From the IMG/VR virus record IMGVR_UViG_647533160_000003: a stretch of DNA of 64,000 bases; one strand, given 5' to 3'. The notes below the pieces were generated by a model. That model made no database searches, had not been told where the DNA came from, and saw nothing but the letters and a program-made list of their open reading frames with translations. Each line of letters starts with the position of its first letter. Within the stretch, counting starts at the first letter, position 1. The stretch is from a virus. Taxonomy: Duplodnaviria > Heunggongvirae > Uroviricota > Caudoviricetes. Positions 57,718-60,683 of this stretch are shown in pieces. Made by a program: the position numbers and the translations under genes.

Positions 57718-58899
57718 ATGAGCCTTTATGTTATATCAACATTTAGGTTGGTCACAATATTGCCTGTTAAAAGTGGAATTATCGTGAGCGAGCTGAAAGA
57801 GCTAATTACCGAATTAGATTTTGAACAATGGTTGGACACTGAAGGTATCATTTATCGGCGCGGAGGCGTGAGTGCTCGCGGTCGTGAAGTGAATATCAAG
57901 GAGTGTCCGGTATGCGGCAGCTCCAACTGGAAGGTATATTTCAATCTGACCAGTGGTGTGGGTAAATGTTTCGCTGGCGACCATCCTGAAGAAATACAAT
58001 TTAATAAGCTGGTGTTCCTCAAGCACTACAGCGGTAAATCACGGCGACAGTTCGAAGAATATGTGCAGAACGCCCTTCTTTCTCAGGGATGGACACCAAA
58101 GAAAGAAGAGATAGTGCTTGCAAGCACAGTCGAGTTAGAGGGACCAGTTGCCCTCCCTCGTCATTACGAACTGCCTATAGATGGCCGTCTTCCAGACTAT
58201 CTGGTTGAACGAAACATATCGCCTGAAATGGCAAAGTATTTTGACCTACGATACTGCGTCGAAGGCAAACACGCCTATGTAGATCCGTATACAGATCAGG
58301 TAAAAGGACAGATATTCGATATGCGAATACTCATACCGGTTTACGATCTGGATGGGGTAATGAAGACATTTCAGGGACGAGACATTACCGGTACAGCAGA
58401 ACGTCGCTACCTCTTTCCTATGCAGCTTCCAGCTTCAGGTAAGTTTCTCTACAACGGCCATAATGCAGTCGGCAAACAGACGGTAGTTGTCTGTGAGGGG
58501 GCGTTCGATGTTATGGGGGTCAAACGAGCTATTTTTGACGAAGAAACATTACGTGATTACGTGGAACCAATAGGAACGTTCGGGATGCATCTATCTGGCA
58601 ACACCACTCAGGATGCAGAAGATCAGCTGGGCGCGTTCCTGACGCTCAAGGCGCGTGGATTACGTAATGTGATCATGATGTGGGATAGTGAAAAGCAAGC
58701 TATACGCAACACTATGGCCGCAGCTAGGCGACTCACAAGTATTGGTCTTAATGTCAAAGTTGCGTGTTTGGGCGAGGAAGGACTCGACCCCGGCGATGCG
58801 ACACCGGGGCAGATTATCAAAGCCTACTATTGCGCAAAACCTTATTCACGACAGCTTGAACTCTTAAGCAAGGTGAAAGGCATTGCAGCACTAGTTTGA
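57718..58899 (+). CDS. DNA primase (zinc-finger + Toprim)
   Basis: Zn-binding 'CPVCGSSNW...GKCFAGDH', Toprim 'VVVCEGAFDVMG', 'MMWDSE'; start approximate (track ORF 57646 spans the upstream hairpin). Confidence 0.75.
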   Translation: MSLYVISTFRLVTILPVKSGIIVSELKELITELDFEQWLDTEGIIYRRGGVSARGREVNIKECPVCGSSNWKVYFNLTSGVGKCFAGDHPEEIQFNKLVFLKHYSGKSRRQFEEYVQNALLSQGWTPKKEEIVLASTVELEGPVALPRHYELPIDGRLPDYLVERNISPEMAKYFDLRYCVEGKHAYVDPYTDQVKGQIFDMRILIPVYDLDGVMKTFQGRDITGTAERRYLFPMQLPASGKFLYNGHNAVGKQTVVVCEGAFDVMGVKRAIFDEETLRDYVEPIGTFGMHLSGNTTQDAEDQLGAFLTLKARGLRNVIMMWDSEKQAIRNTMAAARRLTSIGLNVKVACLGEEGLDPGDATPGQIIKAYYCAKPYSRQLELLSKVKGIAALV

Positions 58900-60036
58900 A
58901 CCAGTATTAGTCACATACACATTGACCGAAAATGATTTAACTTCTGTATTGAAGTTGTCAGTCATTACTGCGAGGTAGGCATTCTTGGTATCTCTGAATT
59001 GCTTCAGGATGATTTGAACGTTGTCGGTGCAAACAAACGAGGTAGCCAGATTGCCTCCTTTCTCTGAAAAATCCTTCAGGAAGGTGCAGTCAACTTTGCC
59101 ATCATTAGCGGTGAAGGTAGCATCATCACCCTGCCAGGTAAATGTAGCGTTAACGCCCTTATCAATGGATTTAGCAATAAGTCGCTGGGTGGCGGATTTT
59201 GTTTTGGCTTTGGAAGCCGGCGCTCGATATTTGCCGCTTTCTTTCAGTTCTGCAATGTAATCGCAGCCTCTTTTTTCTCCTTTATCGCAAGCAGTCTGAT
59301 AAAGGTCGGCTGCTTTTTTATAGTCCTTTTTTACACCTTCCCCATTCTCATACATAATGCCAAGATTGGTTATGGCGTCGGCGTTTCCAAGTTCCGCTGC
59401 CTTTTTATACCACTTAACTGCTTCTGCATCATTGCGTTTAACGCCTAACCCATCATCGTATAGTATTCCTAATCCTATCATAGCTTCTGAACTGCCTTGG
59501 TCTGCCGCCTTTTTGTAATAAGTAAAAGCCTTTTTATAATTCTTTTTAACGCCTTTACCATATTGGTAATACGCCCCAAGAACTGAAGTTGCTTTAACAT
59601 ACCCGGCATCAGAGGCTAGTTTGAAGTATTTAATGGCGAGTGCATGATCTACTTTACCAAGCATCCCCTTTTGATAAATAGCACCAAGATTGTTGTAGGC
59701 TCTACCTTCACGAGCATCCCCCGCAAGTTTGTAGTACTCAACAGCTTTATTTAGGTCTTTATCTACACCCTCGCCAAATGTGTACATAACTCCAAGTGCA
59801 TAATATGCTACTTTATCTCCCTTTTCTGCAGCTAGATCAATCCACTTCTTGGCCTCAACTACATCCTTATCAAAACCATTGACACCATCAAAATAATTTG
59901 TACCTAACTCACTTTGTGCTGCGGTATCCCCTGCGGTAGCGGCTTCTATCAGCGTTTGTTTATTGTCTGCGTTAACGAATCCAGAGTTAAAAAGCAAAGT
60001 TAATGCCAGCAACGATGAAGATTTTATGTATTTCAT
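58891..60036 (-). CDS. Secreted Sel1-like repeat (TPR-like) protein
   Basis: Signal peptide 'MKYIKSSSLLALTLLFNSGFVNA'; multiple ~36-aa repeats (A..WYKKAA.QG...A...LG..Y..G.GV..). Confidence 0.75.
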   Translation of the reverse strand: MKYIKSSSLLALTLLFNSGFVNADNKQTLIEAATAGDTAAQSELGTNYFDGVNGFDKDVVEAKKWIDLAAEKGDKVAYYALGVMYTFGEGVDKDLNKAVEYYKLAGDAREGRAYNNLGAIYQKGMLGKVDHALAIKYFKLASDAGYVKATSVLGAYYQYGKGVKKNYKKAFTYYKKAADQGSSEAMIGLGILYDDGLGVKRNDAEAVKWYKKAAELGNADAITNLGIMYENGEGVKKDYKKAADLYQTACDKGEKRGCDYIAELKESGKYRAPASKAKTKSATQRLIAKSIDKGVNATFTWQGDDATFTANDGKVDCTFLKDFSEKGGNLATSFVCTDNVQIILKQFRDTKNAYLAVMTDNFNTEVKSFSVNVYVTNTGSN

Positions 60037-60269
60037 GTTTTTTTGTTCTGTTGATATAGGATGAACAGTTTAGACGCGGCAAGCGTCCAGTGTGCGAAAA
60101 GGGTACTTAAATTTAGTTAATCTGTCAGCTTTGATAATTTAATTTATGAACTGTAAAGTTGATGTGATATTAATCACCGATGGAAATAATGAGCTATGGA
60201 ATTATTGTGGCACGGCTCGTGTTTTGGTTAACTAATACCTACGATAAATATAAATAAAGGGAAGTCAAA

Positions 60270-60683
60270 ATGAGCAAAAAGAAGTTGATTTTAACAGGTG
60301 CTTTATTGTCTTTGTTTGCATTAGTTGGGTGTAAGCCTACAGACGAGAAGGCTATTACTCTGGGCCAACAGGCAATTGCGGATGATATGAAAGATCCCAC
60401 GTCGGTGATGTTTAGGAAAGATAAGTTTGTCAGGACTGATCATGATGATGGGAGTGTGACAGGCTTTGTGTGTGGTGAATTAAACGCCAAAAATGGCTTT
60501 GGTGCATACGTGGGCTATCACTCATATGTTGTTGAACTCGAAATGAAGCCAAAGGGCATGTTTTCAAAAGGGGTGGTATACAAAATCCTATCGAAGTCGT
60601 TGGCACCTAATGATCCTCATGATTTACAGCGTTATAAGCAGGTCTACAGAAAGATGTGCAACAGTGAGGCTGTAGCTCATTAA
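60270..60683 (+). CDS. Lipoprotein (137 aa)
   Basis: Signal peptide with lipobox 'LVGC'. Confidence 0.6.
   Translation: MSKKKLILTGALLSLFALVGCKPTDEKAITLGQQAIADDMKDPTSVMFRKDKFVRTDHDDGSVTGFVCGELNAKNGFGAYVGYHSYVVELEMKPKGMFSKGVVYKILSKSLAPNDPHDLQRYKQVYRKMCNSEAVAH

Follow-up and report, generated by a model that had tools for sequence, protein, structure and literature searches.

Clinical and livestock Enterobacteriaceae commonly harbor SSU5-like phage-plasmids, which are known to carry genes for resistance and fimbriae. Named examples of the lysogenic-conversion cargo genes of phages (morons) include lom and bor of lambda and cor of phi80 and N15. Among proteins with Sel1-like repeats, PA5087 of Pseudomonas aeruginosa (PDB 5jkp) is an immunity protein of a type VI secretion system (T6SS), whereas E. 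coli EsiB (c5321, 4bwr) and the Helicobacter Hcp proteins (1ouv, 1klx) are secreted Sel1-repeat proteins of Proteobacteria. In Klebsiella, Sel1E protects against VgrG4 (PMC7108748). Here, we analyzed a 64,000-nucleotide (nt) stretch of DNA from a tailed virus (IMG/VR record IMGVR_UViG_647533160_000003), referred to as the window, in which a segment downstream of a DNA primase gene carries a minus-strand gene for an exported Sel1-repeat protein and a plus-strand gene for a lipoprotein (Table 1). These two genes are very probably accessory envelope cargo of an SSU5-like phage-plasmid, and they occupy a slot whose contents vary from one relative to the next.

The flanks of the segment share 96% nt identity with Escherichia phage Cyrano and 80% with Salmonella phage SSU5. 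The 111-kb E. coli plasmid pLH09-a-C, which encodes tail, tail-fiber, ParA-like, helicase, primase, ligase, integrase, and DnaE proteins, is 99.9% identical over the region, and the same segment is present at 93.5% identity in pECOH89, which has been published as an SSU5-like phage-like plasmid (PMC3999498). Given the identities of the flanks, the gene content of pLH09-a-C, and the match to pECOH89, the window is, on the basis of its sequence, an SSU5-like phage-plasmid of E. coli. It has the backbone, gene order, and replication module in common with SSU5, pHCM2, pECOH89, and Cyrano/pLF82, and no difference from these elements was observed in those respects.

Comparison with Cyrano delimited the segment. 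Based on blastn and alignment, homology to Cyrano ends at position 58884 of the window and restarts at 60748, with only 29 nt between these points in Cyrano; the initial annotation, which had described the genes as inserted between the primase gene and downstream genes, was correct on this point. At least six states of the slot were found across relatives. The slot is empty in Cyrano and Enterobacter pFJMB80149_2; it holds the lipoprotein gene only, 33 to 57 nt downstream of the primase gene and on the same strand, in Salmonella and Cronobacter plasmids; the Sel1 gene only in Enterobacter pG6809-1; both genes in the window and pTLYA-2; an unrelated gene for a cytoplasmic protein of 321 amino acids (aa) in SSU5; and a Doc/Phd toxin-antitoxin system plus a chaperone-usher fimbrial operon in pYPE3-114k. 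Fimbrial operons have also been reported in the slot of other relatives (PMC7969092). Since each of the two genes is found with or without the other across these states, comparison of the relatives indicates that they are independent, separately mobile modules and that the segment is a composite rather than one cassette. In the pYPE3-114k slot (5208-5236 of locus L003), ~25 nt remain that match window positions 58885-58909, the 3' end of the Sel1 gene, implying that Sel1-type cargo was replaced there.

As judged from these alignments, the slot is a recombination-permissive cargo hotspot between two transcription units, and the Sel1 and lipoprotein genes belong to the shell gene pool of SSU5-like phage-plasmids. 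When the ends of the segment were searched for direct or inverted repeats and att-like sites, only short matches of chance quality were found (e.g., ACCGAAAATGAT and ACCTAAAATGAT), leaving an origin of the segment as a transposon or integron cassette unsupported. An IS1B element lies inside the segment in the E. fergusonii plasmids NZ_CP056969, NZ_CP056962, and NZ_CP057094, one of which retains only 47% of the segment, suggesting that decay is ongoing in some lineages.

The distribution of the two genes is patchy. While the primase gene was found in 377 PLSDB plasmids (222 from Escherichia, 76 from Enterobacter, 46 from Salmonella, and the remainder from other genera), the segment was detected at the DNA level in 61, all from Escherichia. 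It was present in 62 of 5,426 complete E. coli genomes and was plasmid-borne every time, so that none of these genomes provided a chromosomal source for it. At the protein level, the C-terminal domain of the Sel1 protein was encoded by 91 PLSDB plasmids (60 from Escherichia, 22 from Enterobacter, and 8 from Citrobacter), with the Enterobacter and Citrobacter copies being 64% identical to that of the window; among the matches listed, the gene was mostly annotated as abutting the primase gene. The lipoprotein was encoded by 101 PLSDB plasmids, in about 69 of them at ≥60% identity. The carrier plasmids came from human, poultry, pig, and cattle isolates. A comparison of presence and absence, which the initial annotation had suggested, thus revealed that the genes are not core, with Cyrano, SSU5, and many other relatives lacking one or both; by this measure, the genes are dispensable for the element and are present in a minority of relatives. 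In the RefSeq annotation of the 99.9%-identical copy, the Sel1 gene is labeled "tetratricopeptide repeat protein" and the lipoprotein gene "hypothetical protein." In the library searched, no paper linked Sel1, moron, and prophage, and the papers on SSU5-type elements that we checked, which did not include those on pECOH89, made no mention of Sel1 or tetratricopeptide proteins or of the lipoprotein.

Analysis of the Sel1 gene supported its description as encoding a secreted, minus-strand Sel1-repeat protein, and both open reading frames (ORFs) of the initial annotation were recovered with their coordinates and lengths unchanged. The N terminus (MKYIKSSSLLALTLLFNSGFVNA, followed by DNK) has a basic n-region, a hydrophobic core, and a V-N-A cleavage motif, as read by eye from the sequence, consistent with a Sec signal peptide. 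Pfam Sel1 (PF08238) matched six stretches of the protein with an expect value (E) of 1.1e-53 and a score of 178.2 bits, relative to a gathering cutoff of 30.7, as expected of a family defined by tandem repeats of 36 to 44 aa, and phrog_8741, annotated as "unknown function," matched over the full length with 702 bits. In the AlphaFold2 (AF2) model, residues 23 to 267 form 14 helices with a predicted local distance difference test score (pLDDT) of 93 to 98, giving an alpha/alpha solenoid, while residues 1 to 21 have a pLDDT of <50. Sequence matches in the PDB were 6ok3, EsiB (4bwr; second best, E of 9e-65), HcpC (1ouv; 2e-38), and PA5087 (5jkp; 1.6e-12), and a fold search with the whole protein returned Sel1 solenoids only.

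The repeats differ sharply in conservation from the remainder of the protein. Relative to pTLYA-2, nt identity drops to 58 to 68% at 59200-59700, where there is also a 108-nt (one-repeat) indel, compared with 96 to 100% elsewhere, and alleles of the gene differ in repeat number (335/345, 381, and 417 to 422 aa). These data suggest that the central repeats are a hypervariable, recombining patch between a conserved signal-peptide region and a conserved beta domain. By contrast, no part of the protein is as well conserved as the C-terminal domain, with a mean column identity of 78% and 40 of the 41 invariant columns of the full-length homologue alignment falling at or past residue 285. This domain contains the conserved cysteines C317 and C336; the repeats hold a single cysteine pair, C250/C258, in the last repeat. 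The domain had no significant Pfam match (the best being DUF3617, with an E of 0.17) and no PDB profile match, and a word-index homologue search returned only three proteins.

The Sel1 and primase genes are convergent and share a 9-nt overlap at their stop codons (58891-58899). The initial annotation had called the Sel1 gene convergent, which holds with respect to the primase gene but not with respect to the lipoprotein gene, from which it diverges. Since the same 9-nt overlap is found in Enterobacter pG6809-1, where the protein is only 64% identical, the Sel1 gene appears to have long been a shell gene in this family of phage-plasmids and not a recent insertion. In the absence of an intervening terminator, transcription of either gene would run antisense into the other, an arrangement that allows transcriptional interference between the expression of replication genes and of cargo. 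The ratio of nonsynonymous to synonymous substitution rates (dN/dS) was 0.19 for the Sel1 repeats and 0.08 to 0.23 for the C-terminal domain, and lipoprotein orthologues at 60 to 62% identity have intact reading frames; from these values, both genes are judged to be real and under purifying selection.

Full-length homologues of the Sel1 protein that include the beta domain were found at 46 to 62% identity in E. coli plasmids, Pseudenterobacter, Pantoea, and metagenomes. One of them, at 46% identity, is encoded at the end of a lambdoid prophage, after the tail-tip (J), tail-fiber, and Peptidase_S74 genes and before chromosomal phosphotransferase system genes. The Pantoea homologue is a chromosomal singleton. 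In Pseudenterobacter timonensis (3211-10894 of locus L005), the chromosomal homologue lies among Fil_haemagg_2 and PT-VENN CdiA fragments, on an island that also has small downstream ORFs, a NERD gene, and a transposase gene. This locus looks like an orphan toxin/immunity island with orphan CdiA-CT modules, within which the Sel1 homologue does not adjoin any toxin gene.

The lipoprotein N terminus (MSKKKLILTGALLSLFALVGC) has the lipobox L-V-G-C at residues 18 to 21, as expected of an Lgt/LspA substrate, and lysine at position +2. The +2 rule predicts sorting to the outer membrane in E. coli, so this lysine predicts an outer-membrane location. An AAGGGA Shine-Dalgarno sequence precedes the gene. 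An exhaustive search recovered 1,311 representative relatives (clusters), among which the lipobox cysteine is nearly invariant (consensus L.GC) and which have in common the motif KDPxS..F..G.VCGxxNAKNxFGxYxG, together with another conserved cysteine close to the C terminus. The longer relatives are fusions with SPOR, SH3_3, or PG_binding_1 domains, which suggests that the lipoprotein acts beside the cell wall. In the structural model (pLDDT of 91), a helix packs on a curved four-stranded antiparallel sheet and is followed by a C-terminal helix, a cystatin/NTF2-like arrangement. No Pfam, NCBIfam, PADLOC, or PDB entry matched the lipoprotein by sequence or profile, and a BFVD fold search with the model returned uncharacterized proteins only. 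The family is thus large but has no name, Pfam family, or solved structure. Given that the model is compact and globular, with no C-terminal membrane segment or coiled coil, identification of the lipoprotein as a spanin was rejected. A minus-strand ORF (60624-60761; 45 aa, with the hydrophobic start MYLLIILGAIVLYTK) that overlaps the 3' end of the lipoprotein gene and the hairpin beyond it is probably a chance ORF, since Cyrano has no start codon for it.

A tblastn search matched the lipoprotein to 14 phage records, all of which appear to be temperate phages, a call based on integrase or prophage context for SEN5 and Fraca and on record names for the other 12. In the P2-like phages SEN4 and SEN5 and in an Enterobacter prophage, the homologue lies beside ogr at the int/att end, between ogr and int, whereas in the lambdoid phage Fraca it lies between a "tail assembly protein" gene and the next tail-region genes. 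Based on these gene neighborhoods and that of the lambdoid prophage homologue of Sel1, homologues of both genes recur as temperate-phage cargo, at prophage ends in unrelated phages.

These properties bear on the proposal of the initial annotation that the two genes are probable morons. Like morons, they are extra relative to close relatives, being present or absent at the same position, they lie at a transcription-unit boundary, their products are predicted to be targeted to the envelope, and their homologues occur at prophage ends. Their GC content is also below that of the flanks: it is 0.36 to 0.42 across 59200-60800 and falls to 0.357 at 60000-60399, the AT-rich region noted previously upstream of the Sel1 gene, compared with 0.44 to 0.51 in the neighboring helicase/primase and ligase regions. 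Unlike morons, however, the Sel1 gene is an old shell gene, as the primase overlap retained in Enterobacter indicates, and neither protein has sequence similarity to any named moron product. The accessory nature and moron-like placement of the genes were therefore upheld. As a pair, the genes are ordinary accessory phage cargo, well delimited and unsurprising to a phage biologist.

How might these proteins act? We propose that both would reside in the periplasm of the lysogen and act there as binding proteins rather than enzymes, since no catalytic motif was found and the folds in question, the Sel1 solenoid and the cystatin/NTF2 fold, serve as binding scaffolds or inhibitors. Given that the beta domain has been kept in plant-associated and enteric bacteria and that the repeat patch is hypervariable, the conserved beta domain of the Sel1 protein might dock on a conserved envelope component, leaving the variable solenoid surface to bind a variable partner. 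The lipoprotein would be anchored in the outer membrane, on its inner face and beside the cell wall. Together, the two proteins would most likely shield the carrier cell from agents acting through the envelope: the Sel1 protein would neutralize periplasm-acting toxins in the manner of an orphan immunity protein, whereas the lipoprotein would exclude superinfecting phage or inhibit a cell-wall-active protein of the invader, the latter being suggested by its outer-membrane tether and by the fusions to peptidoglycan-binding domains. Full-length Sel1 homologues in plant-associated Pantoea and in Pseudenterobacter point to a bacterial rather than an animal-host target.

The T6SS immunity protein PA5087 and K. 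pneumoniae Sel1E (PMC7108748) are experimentally supported precedents and the closest comparators for the Sel1 protein, in that they are also Sel1-repeat solenoids and Sel1E has an extra C-terminal region, as does the phage-plasmid protein; a conserved beta domain has not been reported for either, however. The location of the Pseudenterobacter homologue among orphan CdiA-CT modules is in line with an immunity role as well. For the lipoprotein, the comparators are proteins with cystatin/NTF2-like folds, namely, the designed cystatin fold 4r80, latexin (2bo9), and VirB8/TraE (5i97). We give even chances to the account as a whole, in which two accessory modules encode periplasmic binding proteins that protect the carrier cell. 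The mechanism of a protective periplasmic binder, through immunity or exclusion, is more doubtful for the two proteins together and is offered tentatively. It is unlikely that the fullest form of this idea is correct, in which the Sel1 protein, including its beta domain, and the KDPxS/VCGxVNAKN lipoprotein would each be the founder of a new family of protection factors that are carried by phages and work in the periplasm. The hypervariable repeats would then be the specificity surface in an arms race against incoming toxins or phage proteins, the invariant beta domain would be a new docking module for a conserved envelope component, and the lipoprotein would be a widespread cell-wall-proximal exclusion inhibitor.

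Several observations weigh against this account. No toxin, T6SS, or contact-dependent inhibition (CDI) gene adjoins the segment in the window, where the neighbors of the Sel1 gene are the primase gene, the lipoprotein gene, and a phrog_4248 gene; the adjacency to a cognate effector gene that is typical of T6SS immunity genes is therefore missing. The PHROG families that match the lipoprotein are all annotated as "unknown function," and no similarity to any named exclusion protein (e.g., Cor or Llp) was detected. PADLOC returned no match to the lipoprotein and only a spurious 22-bit match of the Sel1 protein to PtuA, so membership in a defense system was rejected. The eight strands of the C-terminal beta domain were modeled with a pLDDT of only 55 to 70. 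With respect to transcription, no terminator was found after the Sel1 gene, and the promoter-like matches numbered 7 relative to 5.3 ± 2.2 expected, i.e., chance level. Thus, although the lipobox LVGC of the annotated "independently transcribed lipoprotein" was verified, its independent transcription was not. Moreover, the same-strand position of the lipoprotein gene just past the primase gene in the Salmonella and Cronobacter relatives suggests that it may be cotranscribed with the replication genes in those elements.

This last arrangement would also fit a role of one or both genes in the lytic cycle of the phage, for example, with the lipoprotein being expressed as part of the helicase/primase operon and modifying the envelope during infection to control lysis timing or exclude secondary infections. 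In the Salmonella and Cronobacter relatives, the unit is closed by a hairpin, and the relative of the lipoprotein in Fraca is encoded amid tail-assembly genes. Nevertheless, a lytic role is unlikely, because Cyrano and many other relatives dispense with both genes, the Sel1 gene is oriented antisense to the replication operon, homologues are found beside int and att where prophages end, and the lipoprotein lacks the C-terminal membrane anchor or coiled coil of a spanin. That the genes are selfish or neutral hitchhikers of no benefit to cell or phage would fit their patchy distribution and the existence of IS1 insertions and truncated copies, but it is very improbable given that dN/dS is well below 1, that the frames are intact across genera at 60 to 64% identity, and that the 9-nt overlap with the primase gene has been kept.

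The Sel1 protein could alternatively be a host-interaction or virulence factor of the EsiB/Hcp/LpnE type that is released and alters colonization or immune evasion by binding, e.g., secretory immunoglobulin A. Its strong matches to EsiB and HcpC, the isolation of carrier plasmids from humans and livestock, and the fimbrial operons that occupy the same slot in other relatives are all in line with such a role. The PDB matches, however, reflect the generic Sel1 consensus over all repeats, and EsiB and the Hcp proteins lack the C-terminal beta domain and are chromosomal rather than phage-borne. The Hcp proteins also have a disulfide-forming cysteine pair in each repeat, unlike the single pair in the repeats of the phage-plasmid protein. 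Given in addition that no secretion system beyond Sec was identified and that Pantoea and environmental or metagenomic prophages encode full-length homologues whose C-terminal domain is nearly identical, we consider a role as a host factor quite improbable.

A defined cargo slot with modular contents helps in reading SSU5-like phage-plasmids, and both of the proteins described here are from uncharacterized families that recur in temperate phages. If either protects lysogens against phages or interbacterial toxins, it would represent a new exclusion or immunity family, and such protection would also help account for the persistence of these plasmids.

Table 1. Features of the cargo slot and its surroundings, in window coordinates
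Feature	Position	Strand	Basis or remark
DNA primase gene, left edge of slot	57646..58899	+	phrog_47, E of 3.6e-63
Variable segment, 1,863 bp, not in Cyrano	58885..60747		Between primase 3' end and conserved palindrome
Exported Sel1-repeat protein gene, 381 aa	58891..60036	-	ORF, Pfam Sel1, phrog_8741
C-terminal beta-rich domain, ~100 aa (aa 283-381)	58894..59190	-	Alignment and AF2 model
Hypervariable central repeat patch (aa ~113-279)	59200-59700	-	Sliding identity to pTLYA-2
Sel1-like repeats, about seven (aa 24-267)	59236..59967	-	Pfam and AF2 model
Sec-type signal peptide, codons 1-23, MKYIKSSSLLALTLLFNSGFVNA	59968..60036	-	Read from translation
AT-rich divergent intergenic region, 233 bp, presumed promoters of both genes	60037..60269		GC content and orientation
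Lipoprotein gene, 137 aa, lipobox LVGC, K at +2, cystatin/NTF2-like fold	60270..60683	+	ORF and model
GC-rich hairpin, possible terminator with weak U-tract, 7 nt past lipoprotein stop	60690..60716	+	-15.7 kcal/mol, z score of -1.9
Palindrome, 18 bp, TAAGTAGATACATACTTA, right edge of every slot state, upstream of gene 60809-61591	60749..60766		Invariant in relatives
TAAGTA-N6-TACTTA copies	60749-60766, 18168, 24968, 43874, 55353, 55481		

The intergenic region between the two cargo genes is 98 to 100% identical to that of pTLYA-2, and the promoter-like hexamers within and next to it are at 60131-60159 on the plus strand and 60268-60241 on the minus strand. Hairpins also follow the lipoprotein stop codon by 7 to 10 nt in the Salmonella and Cronobacter relatives (3928-3946 of locus L019 and 3925-3951 of locus L020); their sequences differ, and of the three lineages only the Cronobacter hairpin has a clear U-tract. 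Such hairpins past the lipoprotein gene would fit a transcription unit ending there.

The palindrome TAAGTAGATACATACTTA, which closes the slot on the right, is unchanged in six relatives with coding DNA that is only ~80% identical, including Cyrano, SSU5, and Enterobacter, Salmonella, and Cronobacter elements. Its pattern, TAAGTA-N6-TACTTA, occurs six times in the window relative to 0.11 copies expected, and each copy is preceded by a run of A residues and followed, after a short distance, by a plus-strand start codon. The palindrome probably serves the element's own regulator as an operator or promoter motif. If so, insertions in the slot would be tolerated because they land after the helicase-primase unit has ended and before the region that controls the next unit.

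At the left edge of the slot, the start of the primase gene annotated in relatives corresponds to position 57784. A second stretch of low GC content (0.37 to 0.41) was observed at 53600-55400, just upstream of the replication module, where the window carries a 398-aa gene matching phrog_8571 (annotated as "unknown function"). Cyrano has other genes at the equivalent position, namely, a RelE/ParE-type toxin gene and a hypothetical gene, and this stretch may be another cargo slot.

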